The position numbers were made by a program, and so were the translations under genes. 64,000 nt of DNA from NCBI GenBank assembly GCA_030616475.1, contig JAUWXF010000001.1:6845-70844 (forward strand), written 5' to 3'. The first letter of the stretch is position 1. Every line of letters begins with the position of its first letter. Positions 1 to 53,110 of the stretch are shown here, piece after piece. The DNA is from Desulfobacterales bacterium. GTDB taxonomy: Bacteria > Desulfobacterota > Desulfobacteria > Desulfobacterales > C00003060. The notes beneath the pieces were generated by a model. The model made no database searches. It was not told where the DNA came from and saw only the letters and a program-made list of their open reading frames with translations.

Positions 1-1635
1 GTTGACGTAGCGCGGCTTTTTCCGGATTTTGACCTTGTAGTTGCCGACGAACCCCGATATCTCCACCACTTCGCTATAGGTATGCAGCTCGATATTTGGG
101 TTTTGCCCCACGGAGACCATCTTAGGGGTCCCGATGCAGGCAGCACAATCGAGGGTGGGAAAGGTCTTGTCAAACTGAAGCATATGGCCGCCAATGGTAG
201 GATCCCTTTCCACCAGATATGCCTTATGGCCGGAATCGGCTATGTCCAGCGCTGCCTGCATGCCCGCGATTCCGCCGCCCACAACCAGAACATCAGGATG
301 TACGCTCACCTCTCGGGGAGTAAAGGTTCGATGATATTTCACCCGGTGGATAGCCGCTGCGACCAATGTCTTTGCCTTCCTGGTAGCCTCGGCAGGATCC
401 TCGGTGACCCATGAAACCTGTTCGCGCACAGAGGCCATCTGTAGATGGTGAGGTTTGAGGCCTGCTCGTTGGCAGGCATCCTGAAAGATCTTTTCGTAAG
501 GTTTTGGGCTACAGGCAGCAACGACCACCCGATTCAGGCCAAGCTCTCTAATGTCCTTTTCAATCATCTCCACGCCAGGATCGTAACACATGAACTTATT
601 ATCCCTGGCCACCACCACATTCGGTTGCTTCCGGGCAAAGGCAATCACCTCCTCCACAGAGACCTTTTCCGGGATGTCAATCCCGCAATGACAGATATAG
701 AATCCTGTTTTGACGACCTCTCCAATTTCAGTCACAACGGGCCCAAGGATTTCTTTGGTGAGGGCTTCTCGTCTCTCCTTCAGGGCCCTCTCGACCCTTG
801 CCATGAACTCCTCCTCTGTGAATGGCTTGGGCAGATACTCGGCGACCCCTGTCTTCATGGCTTCGACCGCCGAGGGGATGCTTCCATATCCCGTGATGAC
901 GATAACCTCTGTTTCGGGTCTCTCACCCTTCAGCCGTTTGATCACCTCCATGCCATCCATATCTGGCAACCGGAGATCGGCTACCAATAAGTCAAAACTT
1001 TTGTGACTCAAGGTATCGATGGCGCTCTGTCCTGTCATGGCCAAATCCACGCCATAACCCTCTTCTCTGAGGACCATCCGAAGCCCCTGTGCTACACTCG
1101 ACTCATCATCCATAACGAGGACCTGGGGCCGACCGGCAGTATCATCCTCCATGGTTTCCTTTACTTGATCCATTTCCATCCCTGCATCCGCGGTCTCAAC
1201 AGGCTCAAGGATCTCTTTTGAGAGGGCTTCTCGTCTCTCCTTCATGGCCTTCTCGACCCTTGCCATGAACTCCTCCTCCGTGAAGGGCTTGGGCAGGTAG
1301 TCGGCGACCCCTGCCTTCATGGCTTCGACCGCGGAGGGGACGCTTGCATATCCCGTAATGACGATAACCCCGGTCTCGGGCCTCTCAGCCTTTATCCGTT
1401 TGATCACATCCATGCCGTCCATATCGGGCAACCGGAGATCGGCTACCAGGAGATCAAACTCTTTGTGACTCAAGGTATCGATGGCACTCTGTCCTGTCAT
1501 GGCCAAATCCACGCCATAACCCTGTTCCCGGAGGACCATCTGAAGTCCCTGTGCCACACTGGACTCATCATCCACCAGAAGGATTTGGGGCTGACCAGCG
1601 GCATCATCCCTAACGGCTTCACCTAACTGATTCAC
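1..1635 (-). CDS. REC-REC-HdrA-like fusion: two tandem receiver domains fused to the N-terminus of an HdrA/HdrL-type FAD/FeS oxidoreductase. The 3' part lies beyond the left window edge.
   Basis: Absent from the ORF track because there is no stop inside the window. My minus-strand translation is open from 1635 to 1. GTG at 1633-1635 is preceded by GGGGGA. Sequence reads ..ILLVDDESSVAQGL..DLRLPDMDGMDVIK..ITGYASV..LPKPF, then a second near-identical REC, then [43 protein letters not shown]. This is collinear with the N-terminus of the 12344..15757 product. Confidence 0.85.
   Translation of the reverse strand, partial: MNQLGEAVRDDAAGQPQILLVDDESSVAQGLQMVLREQGYGVDLAMTGQSAIDTLSHKEFDLLVADLRLPDMDGMDVIKRIKAERPETGVIVITGYASVPSAVEAMKAGVADYLPKPFTEEEFMARVEKAMKERREALSKEILEPVETADAGMEMDQVKETMEDDTAGRPQVLVMDDESSVAQGLRMVLREEGYGVDLAMTGQSAIDTLSHKSFDLLVADLRLPDMDGMEVIKRLKGERPETEVIVITGYGSIPSAVEAMKTGVAEYLPKPFTEEEFMARVERALKERREALTKEILGPVVTEIGEVVKTGFYICHCGIDIPEKVSVEEVIAFARKQPNVVVARDNKFMCYDPGVEMIEKDIRELGLNRVVVAACSPKPYEKIFQDACQRAGLKPHHLQMASVREQVSWVTEDPAEATRKAKTLVAAAIHRVKYHRTFTPREVSVHPDVLVVGGGIAGMQAALDIADSGHKAYLVERDPTIGGHMLQFDKTFPTLDCAACIGTPKMVSVGQNPNIELHTYSEVVEISGFVGNYKVKIRKKPRYVN
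745..1612 (-). repeat. Tandem duplication of the REC-coding segment (copies about 745..1150 and 1207..1612; period 462 nt = 154 codons)
   Basis: GAGGGCTTCTCGTCTCTCCTTCA starts at 760 and again at 1222. The two units stay alignable without gaps, with scattered substitutions (high identity by eye). Confidence 0.9.
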
Positions 1636-6203: not shown

Positions 6204-6778
6204 CGCTTCGCCTCCAGCTCCTCCACCTTGCGAAACATCGCATCAAGCCTCCCTTTTCCAAAGAACTTCGGCATCTCAAGGGAGACCTTGCCTTTGCCCA
6301 TGAGCTTCAGCCCCAGAGAAGCAAACTTGAAGGGGAGAAAAGGGTTTTTCATGGCGAGGAAATAGCGGTTCATGAACTCCATCTCCCTCACCCGGCCATA
6401 GCGCCGCACAGTATCCATGAAACTCTTATAGAATTGAATGCTGCTTTTGTACATCTCTATGCCTTCGGCTGCGGCTATCCTCTTAAGAGCACCAATGGTC
6501 TCCGTCAGAGGAAGGCCACGCGGACAGCGGAGCGTACAGAAATAGCACGCTGAGCAAAGGTAAAAGGTTTTGCTGTTGAAGATCTCGTCTTTCTGTCCTA
6601 GTTGGGCCAACCGCCACAACTGCCTGGGCGTATAGTCCATGGCAGAAGCATTGGGACAAGAGCCACTACAGGTACCGCACTGCATACAGGCCTGAATCTT
6701 TTCCTGGATAGATGCCATGGCATCCGATGCAGCCGATTCATAAGCCTGGCTGGTTAGATCTAGCTGCTGGGCGCTCAT
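6200..6778 (-). CDS. HdrC-like subunit (2x[4Fe-4S])
   Basis: 192-aa ORF with CMQCGTCSGSCP and CSACYFCTLRCP motifs, immediately upstream of hdrB-like. Confidence 0.9.
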   Translation of the reverse strand: MSAQQLDLTSQAYESAASDAMASIQEKIQACMQCGTCSGSCPNASAMDYTPRQLWRLAQLGQKDEIFNSKTFYLCSACYFCTLRCPRGLPLTETIGALKRIAAAEGIEMYKSSIQFYKSFMDTVRRYGRVREMEFMNRYFLAMKNPFLPFKFASLGLKLMGKGKVSLEMPKFFGKGRLDAMFRKVEELEAKR

Positions 6779-6812
6779 TGAGCATAGTCTCCTATCTTCT
6801 TCAAACTATATG

Positions 6813-7062
6813 GTAGTCTGGGCATCTTTCATTTTCGCCGTAAAGTAGTTTACACCTATTGACCAGTGTTCAGGTTTCAGTGTTCAGGTTTCAGGTCTTG
6901 CTTTTTCAGTTTCTGACACCTGGTGCCTGGTTTCAGGTTTCAGTGTTCAGCTCTTGCGTTTATTCACTCCTGACACCTGACACCTGATTCGATCTCGCAC
7001 ACGATCTCCGGCAAAAAGCGTAAACTACGAAATGAAGGATGCCGTAGTCTGGATGAATCCTC
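6813..7062. repeat. Nested long hairpin between the giant hdrA-like gene and hdrC-like
   Basis: Outer arms are 6813..6853 (GTAGTCTGGGCATCTTTCATTTTCG..TAGTTTAC) and 7030..7062 (GTAAACTACGAAATGAAGGATGCCGTAGTCTGG). The inner part is a TCAGGTGTCAGG / CCTGACACCTGA stutter hairpin (6866..6988). Confidence 0.8.
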
Positions 7063-7066
7063 TCAT

Positions 7067-10543: not shown

Positions 10544-10566
10544 AGCTGAAAAACCCCACTTTCACT

Positions 10567-11712
10567 CTATTCCTTGCCGCCAGTGAGCTCTAGAAACTCT
10601 CCTTCGCGAAAGATGGAAAGGGGCGGATCGTCCTCCACACTGCGCCCAGGCTCGTATTCAAAGGCTTTTTGGGTGTGACTCGAAACGGTTCGGAAAAGCT
10701 GCATCACGGGAATATTGTTGGGACACGCATTGGAGCACTGGCCGCAGCCGATACAGGCCGTGCTCATGTGGGCCAAACGGGTAATATGGAAAAAGACCGT
10801 GTCAGTAGGCATCTTGATGATACCTTTCCGCTTGGCCCAACGCAGATACTGCGTGGGTTCGTGGTCGAACACATCGGTGACAAAGACACACTCCTTGCAG
10901 TAGCAAACGGGGCAGGCCACCCGGCAGTTGAAACAGTTAACGCAGTTGGCCAGATAGCTCGTGAGCTTCTCAATGTTTGAAGTGGCCTCAGTGGTTTCCG
11001 CAAACATCTTGTCACGGTACTCGACGCGCTGGGCTACCAGGCTGTCGATTGCCTTTTTGCGGCCGTCCGGCTCCTTGGCCTCCGGCAGTTTCAGCTTTTC
11101 CAGCAGGGCCTCACCCTGGGGTGTGTTGGCCTTGACAAGCATTTGCTGATTGATGTCCACGCCCACCAGACCGATGAGCACATCAGCATTTTCCGGAACT
11201 GGATACTCGCAGGCCTTGCATGCCGGGGAGAGATCAAAATCCTCGACGGCCGTGCTTTTTCCTGCCAGGACATTCTGGCAAAACCGGAGTGTGGCCTCGG
11301 CGCCGTCATCCCCGACAAAACGGCGATAATCGACATTGGTGTAAGCTCCCAGGCAGTCTATACCCACCAGTACGACTTCCTCCATGCGCCCCTGTTTGAG
11401 CTTCACCAGTTCAATGAAGGCCCGAATCTCGCAGGGCCTGAGAACGACAGCCACACTCCCTCCCAGTGGTTTCCCGGTGAGTCTGGAAACTACCTTGGCT
11501 GCGTTCATTGGAAAGACAGGCGCCAGGGGATCAGTGCCGTTCAGCTTTTCCGGGTCGGTCACCAGGGTAGGCATGACCACGTCTTTCATTGGAAGATGCT
11601 GTGGCACCAGGATGGCGCTTATCTCTTCTTGTTCAAGAAGTGTCTTGAAAAACCCTTGCAACGAGTTGAGCGGGTTCTGCTCTTTCACCTCAATCTTCGC
11701 TATCTTCGCCAT
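10567..11712 (-). CDS. FeS protein with a C-terminal 2x[4Fe-4S] domain; the N-terminal part resembles FrhB/FdhB-type subunits (assignment tentative)
   Basis: 381-aa ORF with CVNCFNCRVACPVCYC and CIGCGQCSNACP motifs, lying between mvhD and the giant hdrA-like gene. The family call is from memory only. Confidence 0.75.
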   Translation of the reverse strand: MAKIAKIEVKEQNPLNSLQGFFKTLLEQEEISAILVPQHLPMKDVVMPTLVTDPEKLNGTDPLAPVFPMNAAKVVSRLTGKPLGGSVAVVLRPCEIRAFIELVKLKQGRMEEVVLVGIDCLGAYTNVDYRRFVGDDGAEATLRFCQNVLAGKSTAVEDFDLSPACKACEYPVPENADVLIGLVGVDINQQMLVKANTPQGEALLEKLKLPEAKEPDGRKKAIDSLVAQRVEYRDKMFAETTEATSNIEKLTSYLANCVNCFNCRVACPVCYCKECVFVTDVFDHEPTQYLRWAKRKGIIKMPTDTVFFHITRLAHMSTACIGCGQCSNACPNNIPVMQLFRTVSSHTQKAFEYEPGRSVEDDPPLSIFREGEFLELTGGKE

Positions 11713-11732
11713 TTTTTCTCTCCGTCCATGTC

Positions 11733-12155
11733 CTATAATACCATCTGATTCCTCACTTCATTTGGGCCCAGGGCCTTGAGCTCGGGCACCATCTCTGTAA
11801 TGGTTTCGGCAAATTGAATACCATCACTGGCACCGATCCAGGTAAGCTTCACCCGCTGTTCGTCAAAGCCGAACCTGGGCAGGAGCTCTTTCAGCAACTT
11901 GACGCGCCTGCGGGCCTTGAGGTTACCGTTCATGTAATGGCAGTCGCCTATGTGACATCCGCTGATAAGTACGGCGTCTGCGCCTTCCAGCAGGGCCTTG
12001 ATGACGTACTTGGGATCGACCATCCCGGTGCACATTACCCGGATCAATCGCACGTTGGGGGGATAGGACAACCTGGAGGTCCCTGCCAGGTCAGCCGCCG
12101 TATACGTGCACCAGTTGCACACAAAAGCAATGATGGTTGGTTGGTAGTCTTCCAT
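11733..12155 (-). CDS. mvhD: MvhD-like [2Fe-2S] protein (all-Cys version)
   Basis: 140-aa ORF with the motifs IIAFVCNWCTYTAADLAG, RVMCTG and ISGCHIGDCHY. Confidence 0.9.
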   Translation of the reverse strand: MEDYQPTIIAFVCNWCTYTAADLAGTSRLSYPPNVRLIRVMCTGMVDPKYVIKALLEGADAVLISGCHIGDCHYMNGNLKARRRVKLLKELLPRFGFDEQRVKLTWIGASDGIQFAETITEMVPELKALGPNEVRNQMVL

Positions 12156-12179
12156 GCTCTCCCTCCCGAGATAATTTTC

Positions 12180-12210
12180 CGTTGCGCAAATTCTACAAGC
12201 TATTTAGGCC
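12180..12210 (-). promoter_or_regulatory. Motif A copy (degenerate) upstream of mvhD
   Basis: CGTTGCGCAAATTCTACAAGCTATTTAGG aligns with the copies at 15766, 16838, 31082 and 63238. Confidence 0.35.
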
Positions 12211-12246
12211 ACAGGTTTCTTGTGCTTTCTTCTCCCGCCTCACACC

Positions 12247-12346
12247 TGGAATAATGGAATGTTGGAATATTGGAATATTGGAAACAAAAGCCGCAATCAG
12301 TTGTTCCCGATGCTACATTCCGCATTCCGCATTCCGCATTCCATTA
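12247..12346. repeat. Stutter-hairpin element (GGAATATTGG arm / CATTCCG arm) at the 3' end of the hdrL-like gene
   Basis: The arms are TGGAATAATGGAATGTTGGAATATTGGAATATTGGAAAC and CATTCCGCATTCCGCATTCCGCATTCCATTA. In the minus (mRNA) sense the mismatches become G-U pairs. Confidence 0.8.
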
Positions 12347-15300
12347 TATACCCACCGCACTGAGCGCATCCATGATGCCGTCGAGCTCTGCAAAGATTTG
12401 CTTCTCTTTGAAATGTCTGACCTGCGCAGCGCCGCTCGGGCAGAATCCGGCACAGCTCCCGCATCCCTTACAAAGGGCTTCGTTTACTACCGAGACTCCT
12501 CTTCGTGCATCAAACTCAATGGCGGTGTAAGGACACAGCCCGATGCAGGTCTGGCAGCCAGCGCATATATTCGGGTCTATCCAGGAAATGGTAGACGGAA
12601 TCTCCACACGTCCCAGCGTAGCCATGGCAAGGGCCTTGGCGGCTGCCCCGGATGCCTGGGCAACCGCGTCCGGAATATCTTTGGGTCCCTGGCAGGCGCC
12701 GGCCAAAAATACTCCGTCCGTAGCAGTATTCAGCGGTCCCAGCTTGGGGTGTTCCTCCAGGAAAAACCCATCTGCTCCCTGGCTGACCCCAAAAATCCTG
12801 CCTACATCAAGAGCATCCTTGCGGGCCTGCATGGCAACGCACAGGACCGCCATATCCACAGGCACTCTTAAACGCTTGCCCAGAAGGGTGTCTTCGCTGA
12901 TCATGATGAGCTTGTCTTCCTCTTCCGGTGTGATGGCCTGGTCGGTGATCTCGGCCACTTTGCCTCTGATGAAGGTGGTACCTTCTTCCTGACACCTCAG
13001 GTAAAACTCCTCGTAGCCTTTGCCAAAGCAGCGCATGTCAATGTAAAAATCATAGACTGGTGTTTCGTGTCCGACCTTTTCCTTGATCAGGTGGGTGTAC
13101 TTGATTGCATACATGCAGCAGACCCGTGAGCAGTATTCGTGGTAGTGCACATCCCGGCTGCCGATGCAGTGGACAATGGCCACGCTCTCCGGGGGCTTCG
13201 TAAGTTCTCCATTTTCGTCTCTGATAAGGATCTTGCCGCCGGTGGGCCCTGTGGCATTGCTGAGGCGCTCGAACTCGAGGCTGGTATAGACATTGGGATA
13301 GGTGCCGTAGCCAAACTGTTTCATGGGGGTGGGATCCAGGATGTCGTATCCGGTCGTCAGGATGATGCTGCCAACCTTGACCTCCATCTCTTCTTCCTTC
13401 ATGGTGTGGTCAACTGCCTTTGCCTCGCAGGCCTGCACGCACTCCATACATTCGCAGCAGATGCCGCAGTTGAGGCAGCGGTTTGCCTCCCGTTGTGCAT
13501 CTTCTTCTGAAAAGCCAAGCTCCACCTCGTCAAAGGAAGACGCCGCTTCCTTGGCGTCCCGATGCTGCGCCTTTGCCCGGGCTTCTGTGGCAAGGCCCTC
13601 AGGGATTTCTTTCCAATCCTGGCCCGGGGGTTCCTGGGCTGCCAACTCCTCGGCATAGAGGTCAAGATCCTCGCCATTGACGTAGCGGTGAATAGCCTCG
13701 ACCGCCTTGTGACCGTCTGCCACTGCCTCGATCACCGTTGCCGGGCCGGTGACCGCATCGCCCGCAGCAAACACATGGGGAATGGACGTCTGCATGGTGT
13801 GGCGGTTCACCACCAGAGTGCTCCGGCCGGTAACCTCCAAAGCGGCGCCATCTATGGCCCAGCCTACGTCTGTCTGCTGGCCAATGGCGGGAATGACCCC
13901 ATCGCAGTCGATCACAAACTCGGAGCCCTCCACAGGCACTGGTCGCCGCCTGCCGCTCTCATCAGGTGGTCCGAGTTCGGTGCGCACGCACTCGATGCCA
14001 GTGGCCTTTCCATCCGCACCAAGGATGCGCACAGGCGCGGTCAGGTAATGAATCTTGACACCTTCGGCCAGGGCGCCCTCGATCTCTTCGGCGAAAGCGG
14101 GCATCTCTTTTCGGCTGCGTCGATAGACCATACTCACCTCCTCACAGCCAAGCCGCTTGGCAACCCGGGCAGCATCAACGGCCACATTTCCGCCGCCAAT
14201 GATTACCGCGCGCCTGCCGGGCCGCTCCCGGCTACCCAAATTCACCTCCCTGAGAAAATCGACTGCATTCACCACACCCTCGAACTCATCCTCACCAGGG
14301 ACATTCGATTTCGTCCCGAGGTGCGCGCCAATCGCGAGGAAAACTGCGTTGAAGCCCTGCTTTTTGAGATCATCCAGCGTGAAGTCCGTACCTAAACGTT
14401 TGCCGGTTTCAGTCTCGATTCCCAGTCGGAGAATGTAATTTATCTCCCGGTCCAATACCTCCGGGGGCAGCCGGTAATCCGGGATACCCACCCGGAGCAT
14501 ACCGCCCAGCACCGGAAGCGCTTCAAAGATTGTCACCTGGTAGCCCTTAAGACGGAGATAGTAGGCCACAGTCAGCCCGGCCGGACCCGAACCAACCACA
14601 GCCACCTTTTCTGTGCGGTCCTCGATTTCCGGCAAAGGGAGATCATCAAGATTCACCTGGTCAGAGGCAAAACGCTTCAAATCCCTGATGGCAATCGCTT
14701 CATCCACATCCATCCTTCGGCATTTAGATTCGCACGGATGCGGGCAGACCCGTCCCAGGACCCCGGGCAAAGGGAGGCGCTCCATGATCAACTGGATAGC
14801 CTCCTTGTATTTGCCCTGGCCAATGAGCTGCACATAGCCCTGAATATTGATGCCTGCCGGACAGGTGGTCACGCAGGGGGCCCGGTCTTTCTTATCAACA
14901 CAGAAGGTGATCGGCACTGCCTGCGGAAAGGATCTGTAGATGGCCTTTCTCATCGCCAGACCCTCATCCCATTTGCTGGGCATTTCAACAGGACAGACCT
15001 TGGCGCATTCACCGCAGCCCGTGCAGACACCTTCTGTTACATACCGGGGCTTCCTGCGAATCTTCACAGTGAAGTTGCCAATATATCCCGATACCTCCTT
15101 AACCTCGCTATACGAGAGCAGCTCGACATTCGGATCCTGTGCCACAGAAACCATCTTTGGCGTTCCGATACAGGCAGCGCAGTCAAGTGTGGGAAAGGTC
15201 TTATCGAACTGGAGCATATGCCCGCCGATGGTGGTTTCTCTTTCCACCAGGTATACCTTATGGCCAGAGGCGCCTATGTCGAGCGATGCCTGCATGCCAG

Positions 15301-15757
15301 CAATGCCGCCACCAACCACCATGATATCAGGATGGACACCCACCTCACGGGTGGCAAGACGCTCATGATAGTTGACCCGGTTGATGGCCGCTGCCACCAA
15401 TGTTTTTGCCTTCCTGGTCGCCTCGTCTTCATCCAGGGTTACCCAGGAAACCTGTTCGCGCACAGAAGCCATCTGGAAAAGGTAAGGGTTGAGCCCGGCC
15501 CGCTGACAGGCGCCCTGAAAGGTCTTTTCATGGAGTCTTGGCGAACAGGAGGCCACCACGACCCTGTCCAGGCCAAATTCCCTGATGTCGCTTTCAATCA
15601 TCTCCTGCCCTGGATCTGAACACATGAACTTGTAGTCTCGGGCCACCACCACATTCCTCAGAGCCCTGGCAAATTCCGCCACCTCTTCCACGCGGACCCT
15701 ATAGGCAATGTTGATGCCGCAATGGCAGATATAAAATCCGATTTTCGTAGCCATCAT
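12344..15757 (-). CDS. Large HdrA-like flavoprotein with an inserted NfnB/GltD-like NAD(P)H module (HdrL-type architecture)
   Basis: 1137-aa ORF. It reads [36 protein letters not shown]. The insertion carries CPHPCESKC, VVGSGPAGL, GGGNVAVD and DESGRRRP. The HdrA C-terminal part follows (CIGSRD and two terminal 4Fe-4S motifs). Confidence 0.9.
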   Translation of the reverse strand: MMATKIGFYICHCGINIAYRVRVEEVAEFARALRNVVVARDYKFMCSDPGQEMIESDIREFGLDRVVVASCSPRLHEKTFQGACQRAGLNPYLFQMASVREQVSWVTLDEDEATRKAKTLVAAAINRVNYHERLATREVGVHPDIMVVGGGIAGMQASLDIGASGHKVYLVERETTIGGHMLQFDKTFPTLDCAACIGTPKMVSVAQDPNVELLSYSEVKEVSGYIGNFTVKIRRKPRYVTEGVCTGCGECAKVCPVEMPSKWDEGLAMRKAIYRSFPQAVPITFCVDKKDRAPCVTTCPAGINIQGYVQLIGQGKYKEAIQLIMERLPLPGVLGRVCPHPCESKCRRMDVDEAIAIRDLKRFASDQVNLDDLPLPEIEDRTEKVAVVGSGPAGLTVAYYLRLKGYQVTIFEALPVLGGMLRVGIPDYRLPPEVLDREINYILRLGIETETGKRLGTDFTLDDLKKQGFNAVFLAIGAHLGTKSNVPGEDEFEGVVNAVDFLREVNLGSRERPGRRAVIIGGGNVAVDAARVAKRLGCEEVSMVYRRSRKEMPAFAEEIEGALAEGVKIHYLTAPVRILGADGKATGIECVRTELGPPDESGRRRPVPVEGSEFVIDCDGVIPAIGQQTDVGWAIDGAALEVTGRSTLVVNRHTMQTSIPHVFAAGDAVTGPATVIEAVADGHKAVEAIHRYVNGEDLDLYAEELAAQEPPGQDWKEIPEGLATEARAKAQHRDAKEAASSFDEVELGFSEEDAQREANRCLNCGICCECMECVQACEAKAVDHTMKEEEMEVKVGSIILTTGYDILDPTPMKQFGYGTYPNVYTSLEFERLSNATGPTGGKILIRDENGELTKPPESVAIVHCIGSRDVHYHEYCSRVCCMYAIKYTHLIKEKVGHETPVYDFYIDMRCFGKGYEEFYLRCQEEGTTFIRGKVAEITDQAITPEEEDKLIMISEDTLLGKRLRVPVDMAVLCVAMQARKDALDVGRIFGVSQGADGFFLEEHPKLGPLNTATDGVFLAGACQGPKDIPDAVAQASGAAAKALAMATLGRVEIPSTISWIDPNICAGCQTCIGLCPYTAIEFDARRGVSVVNEALCKGCGSCAGFCPSGAAQVRHFKEKQIFAELDGIMDALSAVGI

Positions 15758-27091: not shown

Positions 27092-28438
27092 CTATTCTTC
27101 CTCTTCTATCTCAACACCGTCCCTTTCATACTGGGCATCTCGTTCTTCATGGGCCTTCTTGACCTCTTCCTCGCTCCACGGTTCGATGATCAGGGCCTCT
27201 GCCACCATCTCCCAGAGATAGAAGACCCTGGCGGTAACATTGAACTCCTTGCTGAGGGCCTTCATGATCTGGTCCCGGCAGTTGTGGCAGGGGGCGCAGA
27301 GCAGTTCGGCGCCTGTCGCGTTGATCTGGTCAGCCTTCCACTTGCCGTAGTCGAGCCGCTCCTTTGTATAAGGCATGGCCCAGGCCCCGCCGCCTGCACC
27401 GCAGCAAATGCCGTTTAGCCCGTGGGGTTCCATCTCAACTATATCTTCGTCATTGAACAAATGCTTGATTATGTACCGATACTCTTCCATGTAGTGCTGG
27501 CCAAAAGACATTTGTGACTTTCTAAAATAATTGCACGGCTCGTGCAGGGTTACCTTCTTGCCGGCAAACTTTGACTTATCTACCTTGATCCTGCCTGTTT
27601 CAAGGTATTCTTTTAAGACGTCATAAATACTTACACATCTGAATTCTTCAAAGGCCTCTGGAAACCATTTCGTGAAACCCAACCGGGTCGCAAAGTATGC
27701 ATGGCCTCATTCCGGATATAGGAGCGTCTTGGCACCTACCTTTCTGGCATTCTCAATCACGCGACCGACCTGCTCTTTCATGGCCTCATCATCACCGGAA
27801 AAAAGGCCCCAGTTGACCCCCTCCCAATTCTGCTTGGGCACCGTCCAGCTCTCTTTGGCCGCATAAAAGATCCGCCACCAGAACATCATGTCGTACGGCT
27901 CGCCCATGGGCTCCTTGGAGTTGATGGTGACAATAATGTTTGCCCCTTCCTTATCGACAGGGCAATAAAATCCCGGGTAGGGAGGATATTCCTCAGCGTC
28001 TTCTTCTTCCAGCTCAACAGTTCCTTCTTCCATCTCCTTGCTCAGATCGGCAAGCAAAAAGAGATAATCGAACTCGGGAATCCCAAGGTTGTTCCCCCTT
28101 TCCAGGTTCATGACAACCCCTTTGTGGATGACACCGGGGACCTTGTCGCGCTCACGATGCGTGCGCGCATTTCTCAAAAGTGACAACAGTTGAACCCCCT
28201 GGGGGCACGCATACTGGCACCGGCCGCACAGGGTGCAGATCCAGGGCCACCGGGAGTCGATCAGCTCCTGTTCCAGGCCCAGAAGCACGGCACGGACCGC
28301 CTTTCTCGGGTCCCAGCCGTCCACGCCCGTGACCGCGCAGCCGCTGGCACAGGTGCCGCACGTAAAGCATACGTCTGCCCACTCGGGCTGTACTGCCAGC
28401 TTGTTCTTTGGTCGTTTGGTCAGGTCTAAAGCTTCCAT
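27092..28438 (-). CDS. HdrD-like FeS/CCG-domain protein with an in-frame TGA (predicted selenocysteine) at 27707..27709
   Basis: Track ORFs 27707..28438 and 27092..27682 share one frame and are joined through ..LLYPE-TGA-GHAYFATRLGFTKW. The N-terminus has CFTCGTCASGC and CTLCGRCQYACP. The C-terminus has GICCGAGGG and CAPCHNC. The hairpin ACCCGGUUGGGU (27677..27688) lies 18 nt 3' of the UGA. Confidence 0.8.
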
Positions 28439-28488: not shown

Positions 28489-29376
28489 TTATACATTCTG
28501 GGCCAGCACAACACCGGGCTTGTCGGTTTCGACTATCTCTCCAGGCTTGCCCAGGAAGCTGGCATAATCGACTTCAACGCCTAACCGCTTTGCTGCTCCT
28601 TCGATGATGGGCGGAAGCTGGGGCTGGGTCAAGAGCACAAGGAGGTCAAAGGTTTCGGTCTTTTCACTGCCGTCTGCCTCATACTTGAGTTCAATGTCTT
28701 TGTTTTCGCCCACCTCGGCAGCATCAACCACCGTGCCATTGATGAACGTTATGCCGGAAACCTTGTCCAGGTCGCTGCCTGCACTCGTTTTAAAGGCGTC
28801 CATATTCGGGGATACAAAACTGATTTCGACTCCGTCTATTCTCTTCTGGGCAATGACGGCCTCATTGATCCCAAGGATAAGGGCGGCATCCCGGACCTTA
28901 TCATCAACCGATCCAAAGGTCTGTACAAACCCAATTTTTTTCGGAATCTCACCGTCCTGGGGGCGGAGGATGAACCCGTTGCTCGCCCCTGTGTCGGCCA
29001 GCATCCGCTCCACCTGTAGATCGGTGACCACGTTCATATGTCTGTTGCCATAGCTGCCGGCTATGGGCCTGATCTTTCGCTGCATCCCGGAACTAAGGAT
29101 AACTTCGTCCACTTCGAGGTCAAGATCTTCGTCCTGCATCTCAAAGTTGATCGCCTCAGGCTTGCACTCGGCCCAGCACAGGGCGCATCCGAGACATCGC
29201 CGGCAGGAAAAGCACCGCTTGGCCTCGGCAACGGCCACCTCTTCAGGGAACCCGGTTTCAACTTCCTTAAAGTTTCCCTGACGTTCTTCAACCTCAATCT
29301 CCGGCATCTCTGCCCGCTCGGCCGGAATATCCTGGAAGTCTATGATGTAGCGTCCCTTTTTCTCGTAGATATACAT
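28489..29376 (-). CDS. HdrA C-terminal-half-like protein (second part of a split HdrL-type enzyme)
   Basis: 295-aa ORF. FPEEVAVAEAKRCFSCRRCLGCALCWAEC aligns with FSEEDAQREANRCLNCGICCECMECVQAC of 12344..15757. It starts 1 nt after the stop of 29378..31048. Confidence 0.8.
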   Translation of the reverse strand: MYIYEKKGRYIIDFQDIPAERAEMPEIEVEERQGNFKEVETGFPEEVAVAEAKRCFSCRRCLGCALCWAECKPEAINFEMQDEDLDLEVDEVILSSGMQRKIRPIAGSYGNRHMNVVTDLQVERMLADTGASNGFILRPQDGEIPKKIGFVQTFGSVDDKVRDAALILGINEAVIAQKRIDGVEISFVSPNMDAFKTSAGSDLDKVSGITFINGTVVDAAEVGENKDIELKYEADGSEKTETFDLLVLLTQPQLPPIIEGAAKRLGVEVDYASFLGKPGEIVETDKPGVVLAQNV

Positions 29377-29377: not shown

Positions 29378-31048
29378 CTACTTCTTCCCTCTCAGATATT
29401 TGTGAATCGATTCCGCTGCGGTTTTGCCACCTGCACAGGCCCGGACAGCAATATTTGCACCTGTGGCAGCATCGCCTGATGCAAACACCCCTTCCACATT
29501 GGTCTCAAAGGTCTTGGGGTTCACCTCAAAATTGAACTTTCTGCCGATCTTAAACCCGTGCTTTTCTTCAACCACACTGGTGTCCGTGACCTGGCCAATG
29601 GCGGCAAAGACGGTATCAGCGTCCATGACAAATTCCGAACCCTCAATCGGCACAGGTCTTCGCCTGCCGCTGGCGTCAGGTTCGCCAAGCTCCATTTTCA
29701 AACATTGCATCCCCACGGCCTTGCCATCCTTGACGACAACTTCCTGGGGGGCTACCAGAAAGTGAAACTTGATCCCCTCGTGCTCTGCCGCGTCTACTTC
29801 CCACGGGCTTGCCGGCATCTCCTTACGGGTTCGACGGTACAGCAGATTGACCTCGTCAAAGCCTACACGGAGACCAGTCCTTGCAACGTCCATGGCCACA
29901 TTGCCGCCGCCAACCACGATCGCTATACCCTTGTTGGGGACCTCATTGCCGAGGCCCGCGTCCCTCAAGAACTTAACACCCTCAAAGACGCCCTCGGCAT
30001 CCTCGTTCTTGACCCGCATGCTCATGCCCATATGGGCGCCAATGGCAACGAGAACCGCGTCATAGTCCTTTCGGATATCATCAAAGCTGATGTCCTTTCC
30101 AATCCGGACACCGCACTTGATCTCCACCCCGTGTTTTTCGACAAATTCAACATCCTTGGCCAGAATCGCCTTGGGAAGCCTGTATTCGGGAATCCCCACC
30201 AGAAACATCCCGCCGGGTTTGGGGAGGGCCTCAAAAACCGTTATGTTATTCTGATATCCGAGCAGTGCCAGGTGATAGGCACAGGTCAACCCGCTGGGGC
30301 CCCCTCCGATAATCGCGATCTTTTCAGGATAGGTCTCATCAGAAACGGTGATCGTGGGCTCAATGTCATTATAAACCTCGTGGTCGGCCACAAAACGCTT
30401 CAAGAAACAGATGCTGATCGGCTCATCCTTGTACCCGCGGTTGCACTCGAACTCGCACGGATGGGGGCACACACGCCCTATACTCAAGGGAAAGGGGAGC
30501 TTCTTTCGGATGGCGGCCAGAGACTCGGCATACTTCCCGTCTGCAATGTAGCCAACATATGTGCGAATATCTAAATTGATCGGACAGGTCCGCTGGCAAA
30601 CAGGCATATCCTCCTTGAACACATTGTAGTTGCCCGAACCTTTGTTGAAAAAATCAACAGCAGTGCGCCATTCAAGGGCCTCATTGTAGTCATCATACAT
30701 GTGGATCGGGCATACCTTGATACACTCCCCACAGTCATCACATTTCTCACGGTCAACCCGGGGTGTTCGACGGTGGATCTTGACCTTGTATTTGCCGTTT
30801 TCCCCGACCAGCGATCGCAGCTCAGCGCTATCTATGACCTGTATTGCCTTGTTTTCTTTTACTGCTGCCAAATCAGGCGCCGTGAAGAAATCACCATCAT
30901 TTATTATCCTGTCCTGCGAAATCCTTTCCCCGCCAATGCTGGGAAAGTCTTCCACCATAAAAACCTTATTGCCGGCATCGGCCTGGGCCAACGCCGCCCT
31001 AACGCCTGCAATACCGCCACCAATGATCAATACATTTTTCTCAGCCAC
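29378..31048 (-). CDS. HdrA-N-terminal-like + NfnB/GltD-like NAD(P)H:FAD module (first part of a split HdrL-type enzyme); GTG start
   Basis: 556-aa ORF with IIGGGIAGVRAAL, CDDCGECIKVCP, CPHPCEFEC, IIGGGPSGL, GGGNVAMD and DASGRRRP. Confidence 0.85.
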   Translation of the reverse strand: MAEKNVLIIGGGIAGVRAALAQADAGNKVFMVEDFPSIGGERISQDRIINDGDFFTAPDLAAVKENKAIQVIDSAELRSLVGENGKYKVKIHRRTPRVDREKCDDCGECIKVCPIHMYDDYNEALEWRTAVDFFNKGSGNYNVFKEDMPVCQRTCPINLDIRTYVGYIADGKYAESLAAIRKKLPFPLSIGRVCPHPCEFECNRGYKDEPISICFLKRFVADHEVYNDIEPTITVSDETYPEKIAIIGGGPSGLTCAYHLALLGYQNNITVFEALPKPGGMFLVGIPEYRLPKAILAKDVEFVEKHGVEIKCGVRIGKDISFDDIRKDYDAVLVAIGAHMGMSMRVKNEDAEGVFEGVKFLRDAGLGNEVPNKGIAIVVGGGNVAMDVARTGLRVGFDEVNLLYRRTRKEMPASPWEVDAAEHEGIKFHFLVAPQEVVVKDGKAVGMQCLKMELGEPDASGRRRPVPIEGSEFVMDADTVFAAIGQVTDTSVVEEKHGFKIGRKFNFEVNPKTFETNVEGVFASGDAATGANIAVRACAGGKTAAESIHKYLRGKK

Positions 31049-31497: not shown

Positions 31498-32280
31498 TTA
31501 GGGCGAAGCCCCTAACTTGTATAAAGGTGTATGATCCTTTACACTCTCCATCTCCACAAAGCCACGCCGCTTCAAACCGAGTATGTATTTCAAGGTCTCC
31601 GGAGGAGGAATTTCAAGCTCCTTCGCCAACTGCTTGACTGAGGCCGATTTGTTCTGCAAGGCTGCCAGAATGGAATGGGTGGCCATCTCGTCAATAACAA
31701 TGCCGCTTAAGGTGCGGTTTATCTCGTGCTCGGTAAAAACCTCATGATACTTGTTGCCTGTATCAACGAAGACAGGCTTTTTCCCAACGACCCACCGCAA
31801 TTTGGGCCCTGCAAGGGCCGTTTTGGCAATTTCAAGGTTCTCCTTGAGCTTTGGCAAGGGGACCTTGTCAGCCTCGCCTCCTAGTGGGCCGAGTTCTCTT
31901 ATCTCTGTGGAAAAATCGGTGACATGTTTCACAAAAAGCTCACTCTCCGCAGAAGAGAGGTTGCGAAATGACAACCGTCCCGGATTCATCCCTGCATAAG
32001 CGAGCATTTCCCCGGTCATGTTTATCTTGTGCCTGGCATTAAAATTCCCGCTCACATAATGACATTCGCCAAAAAGACAGCCGAGCACCAACAACCCATC
32101 AAGACCGTGAATAAAGGCATCAGCCATAATGACAGGGTCCATCCTGCCCGTGCACATAAGACGAATGACCCTGATATCCGTTGTGTATTGCATCCTGGAC
32201 ACGCCAGCGAGGTCACCTGCCGAGTAACCTCACCACGTGCAGCAAAAGGTCAATATCTTAGGGGTAAAATCCTCTGCCAT
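31498..32280 (-). CDS. MvhD-like domain (in-frame TGA, predicted Sec, at 32230..32232) fused to a C-terminal winged-helix-like domain
   Basis: ATG at 32278-32280 lies 8 nt after AGGAGG. My translation is [36 protein letters not shown].., continuing in frame into track ORF 31498..32202. The C-terminus ASVKQLAKELEIPPPETLKYILGLKRRGFVEM looks like a wHTH. Confidence 0.75.
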
Positions 32281-34000: not shown

Positions 34001-34020
34001 TTTGATTCTCCGTGTGTTAG

Positions 34021-34132
34021 TTATTCGTTATTGGTTATTGGTTATTTGATTGTCGATTGTTGATTGTCGACTTTCGATTTGTTTTATTCAATCGTCAATC
34101 GTCAATCGTCAATCCAAAAATCATCAATCCAA
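34021..34132. repeat. Stutter-hairpin element (GATTGTCGATTG arm / CAATCGTCAATC arm)
   Basis: TTGGTTATTTGATTGTCGATTGTTGATTGTCGAC faces CAATCGTCAATCGTCAATCGTCAATCC. The same family occurs at 50900..50997, 59407..59618 and 62934..63008. Confidence 0.8.
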
Positions 34133-46094: not shown

Positions 46095-46460
46095 ATGACA
46101 TCAAAGGGAGAACAAGCGTTCGCATTTGCCCTTGCGGCGATATTACTCGTCGTAGGCGTTGTATGCTATGCCGCCTTTCCGCAAGAAGAACCTGAAGAAC
46201 CTGTAAGACTCATGTTCAAGAGCACTGCTGGAAAGATCTTGTTTGATCACAAAACCCATACTGCCGACGCAGGGTATGGCATTGCGTGCGATGATTGCCA
46301 TCACGAAGAGCAGGAAGGTTCCAGCTCGTGTAGTGGTGAGGACTGCCATGGCCCGGACAGCGACCCAAAAAGGGGCGATGCCCTGCACACCAATTGCAAA
46401 GGCTGCCACGAAGAGAGCGGGGCAGGTCCGGTCGAATGTGCGACATGTCATGTTATGTAG
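46095..46460 (+). CDS. Small membrane-anchored tetraheme cytochrome c (c3-type)
   Basis: 121-aa ORF with an N-terminal hydrophobic helix AFAFALAAILLVVGVVCYAAF. Heme motifs are CDDCH, CSGEDCH (Cx4CH), CKGCH and CATCH, with extra His residues (FDHKTH). Confidence 0.85.
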   Translation: MTSKGEQAFAFALAAILLVVGVVCYAAFPQEEPEEPVRLMFKSTAGKILFDHKTHTADAGYGIACDDCHHEEQEGSSSCSGEDCHGPDSDPKRGDALHTNCKGCHEESGAGPVECATCHVM

Positions 46461-46668: not shown

Positions 46669-47934
46669 ATGATAAAGAGATCTTTTTTAGGTTTGGCCAA
46701 GCCGAGGTTACAGTACAATCTGGTTCCAGATCCGATCCAGGAGCTTCCAATTCCAGGCACTGTTACATTGTTGTTGAAAGAGCCGCAAAACGGAGGGGGT
46801 GCAACCGCTCTCAAAGTTGGCGATGCTGTCAAGACGGCCCAGAGACTCGCCGCATCACCGGACAGTGCCGAATATGTCATTTCATCGGTGACGGGAACCG
46901 TATCGGCCATGGCCCCTTATATTGATGCCTATGGCCAGAAATACACTGCCATCACCATCCAGGCCAGCGGCCAGGACGACTGGGATGATGAGTTCAAAAA
47001 GGAACAGACCATTGATACGGCCCTGAAGTTTTTTGAATACGCCCCCGGAAGCCCTTCTTTCAAGCCGTTTGCCGATCCCGAAAAGAGCATACGGACCATC
47101 GTCGTAAATGGGATGGATCAGGATTTACTCCTTACAGCCAATCAATATGCTGTCCAGAATGAGGCCGCTGAGATCAAGAGCGGTGTTCAAGCCTTAAGAA
47201 AGATGACAGGCGTGGACCGGATTGTTATCACAGTGCCAGACATCTTAGTTCAGCAAGCCAATACCACAGGTGCAGAAGTTAAGACTGTCAGCGCCACCTA
47301 TCCTGACGGCCTCCCTCATATGATCATGAAAGAGGTGGTCGGCCAGGTGGTCCCAGGTGGTAACACCCCGGAGGACCAGGGTGTTTCCTTTATAAGCGCT
47401 GAAGCCGCGGCGGCATTAGGGGCTGCTTTTGAGACCGGCCAGCTTCGCGTTACTAAGGTCGTGACCGTGGTGGGAAAAGACGGCAAGACTACCAATGTTA
47501 GGACCCGAATCGGCACGCCCTTGAGGGATGTCCTTCAAGCTTGTAATGTCTCGCTGAACGATCGGGATCGTCTCATCCTGGGGGGGGCAATGAGAGGCGC
47601 CGCCACCTATTCCGTAGACCTGCCAATAGAACCCCGCACAGACGGCATCGTGGTTCAGGATGAGGCCGATAGCGCCCAGACCACGAATTATCCGTGCATC
47701 AACTGTGGTGAATGTATCAGGATCTGTCCGGTTAAGATCCCGGTGAACATGCTCGTCAGGTTCCTGGAGGCTCGCCTTTATGAAGACGCGGCGGCCATGT
47801 ACGATCTGGAATGCTGTATCGAGTGCGGGTTATGCTCGTATGTCTGTATATCCAGAATTCCTATTTTCCAATATATTATGCTCGGAAAGTATGAACTTGG
47901 CCTGATCAAGACAGCGGAGGCAGCATCAGCCTGA
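46669..47934 (+). CDS. rnfC: RnfC-like subunit with a degenerate nucleotide/FMN-binding region
   Basis: 421-aa ORF, first in the C-D-G-E-A-B order, with C-terminal CINCGECIRICP and CIECGLCSYVC. The region where RnfC normally has G-G-A-G-F-P-T and N-G-A-E-C-E-P-Y reads APGSPSFKPF and NGMDQDLL (about nt 47041..47142). Confidence 0.8.
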   Translation: MIKRSFLGLAKPRLQYNLVPDPIQELPIPGTVTLLLKEPQNGGGATALKVGDAVKTAQRLAASPDSAEYVISSVTGTVSAMAPYIDAYGQKYTAITIQASGQDDWDDEFKKEQTIDTALKFFEYAPGSPSFKPFADPEKSIRTIVVNGMDQDLLLTANQYAVQNEAAEIKSGVQALRKMTGVDRIVITVPDILVQQANTTGAEVKTVSATYPDGLPHMIMKEVVGQVVPGGNTPEDQGVSFISAEAAAALGAAFETGQLRVTKVVTVVGKDGKTTNVRTRIGTPLRDVLQACNVSLNDRDRLILGGAMRGAATYSVDLPIEPRTDGIVVQDEADSAQTTNYPCINCGECIRICPVKIPVNMLVRFLEARLYEDAAAMYDLECCIECGLCSYVCISRIPIFQYIMLGKYELGLIKTAEAASA

Positions 47935-51019: not shown

Positions 51020-53110
51020 ATGTTAGAAGCCTTACTTCTCATGATGGGTTTAGGAGGTGTCGCCGGAACATTGCTGGGGGTTGCCTCCAGGATATTTTAT
51101 GTGTGGGAGGATCCCCGCATTGCGGAGGTAGAAAACTGTTTGGCCGGTGCTAACTGCGGTGGGTGCGGCTTTACTGGATGCGCTGCCTGCGCAAAGGCTA
51201 TTGTGGAGGGTAGAGCGGATGTGGGTGCCTGTCTCGTAGCGGGCGCGGATGGTGCAGCAAAGGTGGCTGCCGTTCTGGGTTTGGAGGCCGGCGCAGCCGA
51301 GCCGCTCACGTCACAAAACACCTGTACGGGCGGATTTAGGGCGCCTGAGAAATTCTCTTATATGGGCGTTAACGATTGCCGGGCTGCCTACCTGCTTTAT
51401 GCAGGGGCCAAGGATTGCGATGTGGGTTGCCTCGGGTTTGGGAGTTGTGTGAAGGCATGCCTGTTTGACGCCCTTAAGATTGGGCCTGATGGTTATCCTG
51501 TGGTTGACGCGGAAAAATGCGTGGGTTGCGGCGCCTGCGAAAAGGCATGCCCCAAGGGGATCATGCAGGTGCGCAAACCTTCTGATCGAATTCTCCATGT
51601 GAATCTTGTTACCGATCGTCTGGCCCCATGCCGTCAGACCTGCCCTGCTGAGATCAACATTCCCAAATATATCCACCATATTAGGAATAAGGAATACGAC
51701 AAGGCCTATCTGACCATTATGGAGCGCAATCCAATGCCCCTGTCTACGGGCCGGGTCTGTCCTCATCCGTGCGAAGATGCCTGTCGCAGGGCGTTGGCCG
51801 ATGATCCGGTTTCCATCAACCAACTGAAACGGTTCTGCTCAGACTGGGTCTACGATGAAGGGGCACAGGTGAAGATCCCTGTGGCACCTGATACGGGATA
51901 CAAGGTAGCCATTGTGGGTGGAGGGCCGAGTGGTCTTACGGCTGCCTATTTCTTGCGGCGCCTCGGCCACAAGGTAAAGATCTTTGAGTGGTTGCCCAAG
52001 TTAGGGGGGATGATCTACTACGGTATTCCCGAATACCGCCTGCCTAAAGAGATCCTTTACAAAGACATTAATCGGATTCTTGATCTCGGTATTGAGGTCA
52101 AGACCGACGTAAAATTCGGTGTGGACTTTGATCTTGAATCCCTTGTGGGAGGCGGTTTTGATGCCGTCCTCATGTCGATCGGGGCCATGAATCATGCCTC
52201 TGCCAGGATACCTGACGAAGACAAGGTCAAGGGAGTGGTCCCGGCCACAGACTTTCTTAGAAAACAGGGTTTGGGAGATCCGTATCGGGTCGGAAAAAAG
52301 GTTGGGATCATCGGCGGCGGGAATGTCGCTATGGATTGCTTGAGGTCCAGCGTTCGCCTGGGCGCTGAGAAGGTCTACTGCCTCTATCGGCGGACAATCA
52401 AGGAGATGCCTGCCAATGTGGTGGAGATAGAGGCGTGTGAGCACGAGGGGATCGAGTTTATTACTTTGTGTACCCCAACCAAGTTCACAACGGATGATGA
52501 GGGAAACCTCACAGGTATTGAATACCTGAAAAATGAGTTAGGAGAACCGGATGCGAGCGGCAGGCGCAAGCCCGTACCCATCGAAGGCTCTGAGACCGTG
52601 ATCCCCCTTGATAACTTTATCCTGGCAATAGGTCAGACCACCGATTCAGCCTTTGCGGATAAAGAAGGGACCGCAGTATCGAGGCTTGAAACCAAGAGGG
52701 GCTCGATTCTGAATGATCCGGATACTCATCAGACAGCCATCCCTTACGTGTTTACCAGCGGGGACTCCGCAGGACCTCCCGGGCTTTTGGTTGCGGCCAT
52801 TGGGGCCGGTAGGCGAGCTGCCAGGGGAATCCATAAGTATCTCATGGGAGAGGATATGGCATTTCCTCCGGCAAGGCTTCGGGTGGACTCAAGGCGCATG
52901 AAAGGTCACATACCCGGTACGATCTTCGATAGCATCGAGGGCATCAAGAAAAAAGGCCGCATTGCCCAGCCCGAGCTGGAGCCAGGCTCTTACGAAAGGC
53001 AGCATACTTATGCCGAGGTGGACCTGACGGTTACCGAGGAGGAGGCCCTGAAAGAGGCCAACCGTTGCATGCGGTGCTGTCTTACGTGTTATAACAAAGA
53101 CGCTAGATAA
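51020..53110 (+). CDS. rnfB: RnfB-like FeS subunit fused to an NfnB/GltD-like NAD(P)H:FAD module
   Basis: 696-aa ORF. It has an N-terminal anchor, CGGCGFTGC and CVGCGACEKACP (RnfB-type). The fused module has CPHPCEDAC, IVGGGPSGL, GGGNVAMD, DASGRRKP and a C-terminal EANRCMRCC. Confidence 0.85.
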   Translation: MLEALLLMMGLGGVAGTLLGVASRIFYVWEDPRIAEVENCLAGANCGGCGFTGCAACAKAIVEGRADVGACLVAGADGAAKVAAVLGLEAGAAEPLTSQNTCTGGFRAPEKFSYMGVNDCRAAYLLYAGAKDCDVGCLGFGSCVKACLFDALKIGPDGYPVVDAEKCVGCGACEKACPKGIMQVRKPSDRILHVNLVTDRLAPCRQTCPAEINIPKYIHHIRNKEYDKAYLTIMERNPMPLSTGRVCPHPCEDACRRALADDPVSINQLKRFCSDWVYDEGAQVKIPVAPDTGYKVAIVGGGPSGLTAAYFLRRLGHKVKIFEWLPKLGGMIYYGIPEYRLPKEILYKDINRILDLGIEVKTDVKFGVDFDLESLVGGGFDAVLMSIGAMNHASARIPDEDKVKGVVPATDFLRKQGLGDPYRVGKKVGIIGGGNVAMDCLRSSVRLGAEKVYCLYRRTIKEMPANVVEIEACEHEGIEFITLCTPTKFTTDDEGNLTGIEYLKNELGEPDASGRRKPVPIEGSETVIPLDNFILAIGQTTDSAFADKEGTAVSRLETKRGSILNDPDTHQTAIPYVFTSGDSAGPPGLLVAAIGAGRRAARGIHKYLMGEDMAFPPARLRVDSRRMKGHIPGTIFDSIEGIKKKGRIAQPELEPGSYERQHTYAEVDLTVTEEEALKEANRCMRCCLTCYNKDAR

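Follow-up and report, generated by a model that had tools for sequence, protein, structure and literature searches.

We analyzed a 64,000-nucleotide stretch of the genome of a Desulfobacterales bacterium (assembly GCA_030616475.1, contig JAUWXF010000001.1, positions 6,845 to 70,844; hereafter the window) and found that it carries one pyridine-nucleotide cassette in three different hosts: inserted into HdrL, a complete HdrA protein; distributed over the two genes of a reduced, split HdrA; and fused to a large RnfB. Each copy is likely to be a self-contained NADP(H) port of the circularly permuted type known from StnC and NfnA(Bfu), which would exchange electrons with its host via two iron-sulfur clusters. 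Anaerobes living near the thermodynamic limit balance their NADPH, NADH, ferredoxin, and thiol/disulfide pools by means of modular flavin/iron-sulfur enzymes, and this window shows the reuse of one putative NADPH port on soluble machines of the Hdr type and membrane machines of the Rnf type. Most of the components have been published, namely HdrL (2009), the ANME-1 HdrA-NfnB fusions (2022), Tol2-type Rnf (2013/2016), and the shuffling of an NfnL-like domain among enzymes (Xiao et al. 2025). As the main facts are in the literature, the gain made here is one of synthesis and detail and not of discovery.

One cassette in three hosts

An original prediction, made from the DNA sequence, proposed that a single NfnB/GltD-like module is present in an HdrA, in a split gene pair, and in an RnfB. 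The open reading frames (ORFs) are exactly as it gave them, and every motif it quoted is present in every copy. We profiled the proteins of the window against Pfam and NCBIfam and scanned the 3.79-Mb assembly (360 contigs) by tblastn with HdrL residues 286-800 as a query. The window contains three copies and no more, the other two matching the HdrL query with 46% and 45% identity (E values of 1e-119 and 3e-113), scores that are far above chance expectation. A fourth copy, the last in the assembly, is encoded on contig C17. The shared module has ~470-500 residues and consists of Fer4_20, the Rossmann domains for flavin adenine dinucleotide (FAD) and NAD(P)H, and, at the C-terminus, the tail EAxRCxxC. 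Fer4_20 (PF14691) and Pyr_redox_2 (PF07992) were detected in all four copies, and PRK12771 and PRK12814 were the top NCBIfam models for the cassette parts of the three window loci. Compared in pairs, the local copies share 43-48% identity, and a four-way alignment showed homology from end to end. All four have the N-side motifs CxxxCP, GRVCxHPCExxC, and LKRF, the cofactor motifs GxGPxGL, IPxYRLP, GGGNxAxD, YRR(S/T)xxEMPA, and SGRRxP, and the tail, which in the split version is located on the 295-residue protein (residues 51-58).

Within HdrL, matches to the HdrA2 model (residues 5-296 and 767-1131) flank the PRK12771 match (residues 288-797), confirming that the cassette is inserted in an HdrA. 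It starts with C295xxxC299P, GRVC338PHPC342ESKC346, and K361 of LKRF, continues with GSGPAGL, GGGNVAVD, YRRS, SGRRRP, and a linker, and ends with the tail EANRC760LNC763, so placed that it lies between CTGCGECAKVCP (residue 245) and the post-tail motif RC760LNC763GIC766CECMECVQAC776. The two ORFs of the split version are indeed separated by 1 nucleotide. The parts of the split version outside the cassette are matched by HdrA models, as are the flanks in HdrL. The 556-residue protein carries the core of the cassette but no tail (residues ~148-556; window 29381-30607), and the 295-residue protein carries the tail (residues ~17-58 with EAKRC55FSC58; window 29203-29328) followed by the ferredoxin motif CxxCxxCxxxC. 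In the large RnfB, models of RnfB match residues 3-195 and PRK12771 matches residues 196-692; the cassette forms the C-terminal two thirds of the protein, as had been predicted.

Circular permutation and subfamily of the cassette

The cassette is circularly permuted. Compared with canonical NfnB, the first ~45 residues, which comprise a helix and RCxxC, appear to have been relocated to the C-terminus, where they form the tail. In phmmer alignments the core corresponded to residues 46-462 of Thermotoga maritima NfnB (4ylf_B) and the tail separately to residues 9-42; for Pyrococcus furiosus NfnL (5jca_L) the corresponding regions were residues 49-473 and 6-46. The N side of the cassette matched positions 29/30-113 of the Fer4_20 profile and the tail of the 295-residue protein matched positions 2-38, and the NCBIfam models TIGR01316, TIGR01318, PRK12778, PRK13984, and PRK12775 placed this tail just N-terminal of the start of the core. 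These alignments and profile positions therefore locate the cut after the second cysteine of the canonical motif CxxC-x4-C-x3-CP: the N side of the permuted cassette retains CxxxCP, and RCxxC comes from the tail. With the motif divided in this way, both ends of the module should meet at one [4Fe-4S] cluster, the distal one, and it is this that would allow the module to be placed inside a ferredoxin-like domain or attached to one. Three results support a meeting of the ends. The tail cysteines are invariant in 54 RnfB fusions, and an AlphaFold2 (AF2) model of RnfB has values of 86-89 in the predicted local distance difference test (pLDDT) for the tail helix (residues 651-680), with a mean pLDDT of 79 and a predicted TM-score (pTM) of 0.72. 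The boundary of the GltD-like domain of StnC was set by its authors at residue 565, which by residue count is the second tail cysteine.

Together with its FAD-proximal cluster ligand, the permutation points to the Lys-ligated StnC/NfnA(Bfu) type and not to NfnB/GltD proper. The best solved relatives were Nfn-ABC of C. saccharolyticus (9bov_A; E value of 8e-128), NfnA of T. sibiricus (Tsi; 9n5u_A), and StnC of S. ovata (8oh5_C), with alignments that extend through the tail, and a Foldseek search with the AF2 model ranked the solved relatives in agreement with the sequence search. The StnC/Bfu-type NfnA module is inserted in a NuoG-like protein, binds NADPH and FAD, passes single electrons via two clusters, and has a non-bifurcating FAD, as seen from cryo-EM structures and mutants (PMC10482914, PMC12018979). 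Its proximal cluster has a lysine ligand, K170 in StnC (PMC10482914) and K165 in Tsi NfnA (PMC12018979), at a position where NfnL has a glutamate. All four local copies have LKRF here and at least 144 of the 166 family members sampled have Lys at this column; the corresponding sequence is LERF in NfnB/NfnL and IERY in Escherichia coli GltD.

The local copies resemble StnC/NfnA(Bfu) (8OH5, 9N5U, 9BOV) in being permuted with an EAxRCxxC(G)C tail and in having LK[RS]F and the FAD/NADPH motifs, and HdrL also resembles them in that the module is inserted in an iron-sulfur host protein. They differ in the identity of the host, which for StnC/NfnA is a NuoG/FdhF-like subunit on a NuoEF-type bifurcating module and here is HdrA, the reduced split HdrA, RnfB, or MvhD; StnC residue Cys114 is not retained in the local copies. 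Canonical NfnB/NfnL (4YLF, 5JCA) and GltD share with them the fold (target-normalised TM-score of 0.78-0.81), the FAD/NADPH motifs, and two [4Fe-4S] clusters, but have an N-terminal RCxxC and a proximal Glu, belong to a separate clade, and work with NfnA or GltB partners that we did not see here. In the copies, the RCxxC segment is C-terminal and the proximal ligand position is occupied by Lys. They scored 200-229 bits against the GltD model TIGR01317, for which the cut-off is 447.7, and they neighbour Hdr, Mvh, and Rnf genes. The position of the tail, the Lys ligand, and the tree described below thus rule out that the copies are canonical NfnB or GltD. Hence, the predicted 'NfnB/GltD-like' character holds at the level of the domain, its fold, and its FAD/NADPH motifs, and has to be refined to StnC/NfnA-type in view of the permutation, the lysine, and the separate clade. 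The cassette tblastn detected neither a canonical GltD nor a canonical NfnB in the assembly, in which the four permuted cassettes were the only superfamily members found; with 360 contigs the assembly is possibly incomplete and absence is not established.

We propose that the port is a flavoprotein module of the GltD/NfnL fold that contains two [4Fe-4S] clusters, a single FAD, and a single NADPH site. It would take a hydride from NADPH or give one to NADP+, and its two clusters would hand electrons one by one to the iron-sulfur chain of the host. The lysine (versus glutamate) and the position of the tail are markers by which such simple NADPH wires may be told from bifurcating NfnB. They could improve the annotation of proteins that are presently labeled 'FAD-dependent oxidoreductase', 'glutamate synthase beta subunit-like', or 'formate dehydrogenase beta subunit', and the cassette proteins point to testable enzymes in cultivable Desulfobacterales.

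Phylogeny, breadth, and alternative readings

The original prediction called for a phylogeny of the copies against NfnB and GltD. Our tree contained 169 cassette cores. Of 150 library representatives 145 were used, five with partial cores having been dropped, and to these were added 8 homologs of the RnfB type and 6 of the split type, 5 solved structures, the 4 local copies, and E. coli GltD as an outgroup. The tree was calculated with IQ-TREE (LG+G4, quick search) with support from the Shimodaira-Hasegawa-like approximate likelihood ratio test (SH-aLRT). The tail-bearing cassettes, including all local copies, formed one clade of 166 rows (SH-aLRT 97) that is sister to the NfnB/NfnL clade (99), and E. 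coli GltD fell outside it. With one clade and identical cofactor motifs, the copies are therefore not modules from unrelated clades with different cofactor sites. They are found in four different context-specific subclades. The RnfB-type clade (100) is nested inside NuoG-inserted forms (98), the split type has a clade of its own (100), the C17 copy groups with MvhD fusions (92), and the HdrL copy is placed with three representatives, of which one is HdrA-inserted, one stand-alone, and one NuoG-inserted. Orthologs in other genomes are 82-89% identical to the local copies. Given the four subclades and the much lower mutual identity, we conclude that the copies represent old lineages and not recent duplicates. 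The HdrA-context label changed at least nine times on well-supported branches, and the cassette has therefore been redeployed repeatedly. The modular exchange of a pyridine-nucleotide entry port that had been predicted is borne out by one homologous cassette in many contexts and by the NuoEFG swap described below, with the qualification that the exchange is ancient.

An exhaustive search of 1.84 billion cluster representatives gave 5,427 matches at E values of at most 1e-30. In ~143 of the top 150 representatives the match reached query residue 479 or beyond, past the RCxxC of the tail; the exceptions were five cores that end at residues 410-416, like the split type, and two partial matches. 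The cassette-bearing representatives have 378-1504 residues, with the cassette starting anywhere between residue 1 and ~645, and the cassette was found in dozens of architectures. The top 150 included 37 stand-alone forms, about 10 MvhD fusions, about 33 NuoG-like insertions, about 9 fusions after NuoF, and about 50 HdrA contexts, among them fused TrxR1-[cassette]-HdrA_C forms.

Two alternative readings concern the chemistry of the port. The FAD of the cassette might itself be of the bifurcating NfnB type, in which case HdrL would have two bifurcation sites, as was considered for ANME-1 HdrA-NfnB fusions (Chadwick et al. 2022). The same fold, the identity of ~37-45% to NfnB/NfnL, and the conserved Arg of IPxYRLP (R201 of NfnB) could be taken in its favor, but this arginine is uninformative on bifurcation because it is conserved in non-bifurcating enzymes too. 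A bifurcating FAD is quite unlikely in the face of Lys instead of Glu at the proximal-cluster ligand in all four copies and of their place in the clade of StnC/NfnA(Bfu), for which a non-bifurcating FAD was demonstrated; by this ligand and this clade we predict a non-bifurcating FAD. In addition, there was no NfnA-like [2Fe-2S]/FAD (PyrK-like) partner among the neighbours scanned, no NfnA query having been run on the genome. The other reading is that the module binds NADH and not NADPH, as the first descriptions of HdrL and Tol2-type RnfB assumed. Their wording, 'NADH binding site' (Strittmatter 2009) and 'NAD+-binding sites' (Dörries 2016), came from generic Rossmann-domain matches. YRR(S/T)xxEMPA and GGGNxAxD are common to the NADPH-dependent NfnB, NfnL, StnC, Tsi NfnA, and GltD, which makes NADH an unlikely substrate, and the only family members departing from this pattern are four with CLE(S/D), none of them local. 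The YRR(S/T) that the copies share with NADPH-dependent references, including the NADPH-bound structures of StnC and NfnL, suggests specificity for NADPH.

The remaining alternatives concern the origin of the copies. Three copies inside 40 kb of one contig could reflect recent duplication and shuffling within this genome, an explanation that is very improbable and that we rejected on the basis of the tree: a mutual identity of 43-48% contrasts with 82-89% to orthologs elsewhere, each copy belongs to its own strongly supported context clade (100 for both the RnfB and split types), and each architecture is conserved across orders. Likewise, ORFs just 1 nucleotide apart might be a fused HdrL-like gene disrupted by a frameshift, by decay into a pseudogene, or by an assembly artefact. 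We looked for fused relatives, as the original prediction had recommended, and found none among the best 120 homologs of the 556-residue protein (57-93% identity), all of which have 423-581 residues. In Desulforhabdus- and Desulfoferrobacter-type genomes, the gene for a partner of 285-295 residues follows after 63-86 nucleotides, and the partner keeps the N-terminus MxYEKKGR..FQDIP. Since the homologs consistently consist of two genes, a frameshift origin was rejected, and an artefact of any of these kinds is extremely improbable.

Other points weigh against a non-bifurcating NADP(H) port of StnC/NfnA type. In methanogens, the inserted ferredoxin domain of HdrA is the low-potential exit to ferredoxin, and attachment of a -320 mV couple at this domain would be thermodynamically unexplained. 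Cofactor specificity, the non-bifurcating FAD, and the direction of electron flow are predicted from motifs and from homology to StnC/NfnA at ~47-58% identity. The stretch with the tail cysteines has a pLDDT of just 51-60 in the AF2 model, and we found no list of cluster-ligating residues for StnC (8OH5) in the text of PMC10482914. The tree came from a quick search, with SH-aLRT as its sole measure of support, and large parts of its backbone are poorly resolved; the architecture labels, which were derived from phmmer domain queries, are crude.

Host proteins, gene neighbourhoods, and proposed electron routes

Features of the window and the cassette copy on contig C17
Feature	Position	Strand	Description
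Paralogous HdrA, front half	1..1635	-	REC-REC-HdrA (N-terminal domain, TrxR part 1, first ferredoxin motif)
hdrB	5328-6203	-	downstream of hdrL
hdrC	6200-6778	-	downstream of hdrL
Double HdrA	7067-10543	-	1158 residues; internal receiver domain PF00072, residues 192-298
FrhB/FdhB-like iron-sulfur protein	10567-11712	-	downstream of hdrL
mvhD	11733-12155	-	downstream of hdrL
hdrL	12344..15757	-	1137 residues, complete HdrA; cassette within inserted ferredoxin domain
Cassette copy 1	13469..14884	-	HdrL residues ~292-763
HdrD-like protein	27092..28438	-	Fer4_8 + CCG; directly downstream of split pair
Split gene 2	28489..29376	-	295 residues; 1 nucleotide after the ORF of 556 residues
Split gene 1	29378..31048	-	556 residues; HdrA FAD-binding start and first ferredoxin motif, residues 1-~147
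Long MvhD	31498..32202	-	234 residues; directly upstream of split pair
Cytochrome c3-family gene	46095..46460	+	121 residues, tetraheme, membrane-anchored; PF02085; directly upstream of rnfC
rnfC	46669..47934	+	degenerate FMN/NADH site; both 4Fe-4S motifs retained
rnfD	47954-48922	+	
rnfG	48915-49508	+	
rnfE	49669-50307	+	
rnfA	50323-50898	+	
Large RnfB	51020..53110	+	696 residues; transmembrane helix, RnfB iron-sulfur domain, 2x[4Fe-4S], residues 1-~195
Cassette copy 3	51620-53089	+	RnfB residues ~201-690; tail at extreme C-terminus
Cassette copy 4	C17:5542-7617	-	691 residues: cassette, tail, 2x[4Fe-4S] domain, MvhD-like (FlpD) domain

HdrL has all parts of a complete HdrA (the N-terminal domain, the TrxR-like FAD domain including the 4-Cys cluster, and a ferredoxin domain at the C-terminus) in addition to the GltD-like insertion, and mvhD follows. 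Proteins of this kind with ~1136 residues are very common (more than 120 clusters, 74-98% identity). HdrL was described as a fusion of HdrA and glutamate synthase with a nucleotide site (PMC2702500, PMC5947623), the HdrABC/HdrL complex of S. fumaroxidans is abundant with sulfate (PMC5947623), and the ANME-1 proteins HdrA9-11 bear an NfnB-like insertion in the inserted ferredoxin domain (PMC9012536). HdrL of D. autotrophicum, HdrABC/HdrL of S. fumaroxidans, and HdrA9-11 of ANME-1 are like the protein studied here in having a GltD/NfnB-like insertion of ~500 residues that interrupts this domain. The published layout, in which mvhD and an FdhB/FrhB-like protein follow and hdrABC adjoins (PMC2702500, PMC5947623), matches window positions 5328-15757. 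In contrast to published HdrL, the protein encoded here lacks selenocysteine, and the adjoining HdrA has a receiver domain; neither the permutation nor the Lys ligand is part of the published HdrL and ANME-1 descriptions. We propose that the inserted ferredoxin domain would connect NADP(H) with the HdrA flavin, which would in turn be linked to MvhD and HdrBC, where the chain probably ends at a DsrC-type disulfide and/or ferredoxin.

A paralog of HdrL lies at the left edge of the window, with its remainder in the adjoining part of the contig (C61:1-6844). Its front half is 74% identical to HdrL residues 5-258 and its back half 72% identical to residues 763-1137. It is broken at the site of the cassette: NuoE-like and NuoF-like genes separate the two halves, the second of which is fused to a NuoG-like N-terminus. 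The NuoEFG-bearing paralog provides the most direct evidence that pyridine-nucleotide ports swap on one scaffold.

The split HdrA is a reduced form without the N-terminal domain, the FPTLDCAAC cysteines, the TrxR-like 4-Cys cluster, and the ferredoxin domain at the C-terminus. The remainder of the 295-residue protein is a degenerate TrxR-like domain of HdrA, in which the 4-Cys cluster has been lost (HCIGSRD..CSRVCC became FVQTFGSVD..) and which is not followed by a C-terminal ferredoxin domain. Because the core and the tail are parted within their linker, ligation of the distal cluster would involve both polypeptides. This would force formation of a heterodimer, which would be an NADPH adaptor of the MvhD, HdrA, and HdrD-like proteins encoded nearby. 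In the Desulforhabdus- and Desulfoferrobacter-type genomes, the gene order upstream of the pair is conserved (HdrA, MvhD, CCG protein, HdrA pieces, long MvhD), and relatives L003-L005 keep the long MvhD in its position. Apparent HdrC-like and HdrB-like ORFs downstream of the pair read as one protein of 449 residues, the HdrD-like protein, through an in-frame TGA (U244, ...LLYPE-U-GHAYF...), and this protein is probably a selenoprotein.

In the Rnf cluster, RnfC has lost its flavin site: compared with E. coli RsxC, GLGGAGFP is replaced by APGSPSFK and NAAECEPY by NGMDQDLL, and RnfC gave a weak match to Complex1_51K (E value of 1e-10) and none to SLBB. The same loss of flavin motifs with retention of the 4Fe-4S motifs was found in a Syntrophales relative. 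Fer4_20 and Pyr_redox_2 were present in all of the best 120 matches to the large RnfB (55-95% identity), which come from Desulfobacterales, Syntrophales, and other Thermodesulfobacteriota, and the full-length ones among them (at least ~680 residues) all have the RnfB iron-sulfur domain PF04060. These are the features of Tol2-type Rnf, for which PMC5109826, citing Wöhlbrand 2013, describes, in D. toluolica, an RnfB of ~700 residues with NAD-binding sites and an RnfC without NADH domains. According to this source, the 'Rnf2' of Desulfobacteraceae resembles the cluster in the window in its large RnfB with an NAD(P)-binding module, in the order rnfCDGEAB, and in an RnfC without NADH/FMN and SLBB features. 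Nothing essential differs; what we add is that the RnfB module is a StnC-type permuted cassette nested in NuoG-inserted forms. The pyridine-nucleotide site would thus have moved from RnfC to RnfB to give an NADP(H)-linked pump, whose candidate other partner is a protein that docks on the RnfC clusters or the cytochrome c3 of the operon.

The permutation might have been an enabling invention that, by bringing both chain ends to the distal cluster, made the NADPH module a plug-in for any ferredoxin-like loop. We put this forward tentatively, as a possibility on the doubtful side. If it is true, the genome holds three natural experiments: one HdrA scaffold, with flanks that are 72-74% identical, carrying either an NADPH cassette or a NuoEFG NADH module; a stable two-gene form in which cysteines of two polypeptides provide the distal cluster on a stripped-down HdrA; and an Rnf pump with its pyridine-nucleotide site shifted from RnfC to RnfB. 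In a non-exhaustive literature search we found no description of the permutation, of the conserved split and degenerate HdrA variant, or of the pair of HdrA paralogs with cassette and NuoEFG, and no dedicated description of the RnfB-glutamate synthase/NfnB fusion, which is mentioned by Dörries 2016 and Xiao 2025.

Several further observations concern the surroundings of the copies. The cytochrome c3 gene also precedes rnfC in the Syntrophales relative L008. Directly downstream of rnfB are genes for an [NiFe] hydrogenase (53564-56117, forward strand), followed by hyp maturation genes, and the small subunit of the hydrogenase has a twin-arginine-like leader (RRDFMK). Hydrogenase and cytochrome c3 together suggest a link from periplasmic H2 to Rnf. 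Ca. Desulfarcum epimagneticum encodes the large RnfB alone, away from rnfCDGEA, and operon linkage of the fusion is therefore not universal. The C17 copy has metV/metF, mvhD, a double HdrA of 1024 residues, and hdrB/C-like genes as neighbours, and the locus is a MetFV-Hdr-type methylene-tetrahydrofolate reductase cluster that has a putative NADPH port of its own. Elsewhere in the window, three more large HdrA-like genes (32324-35707, 37672-40671, and 41845-45126, reverse strand) lack a cassette; they have in-frame stops under standard translation and probably contain selenocysteine.

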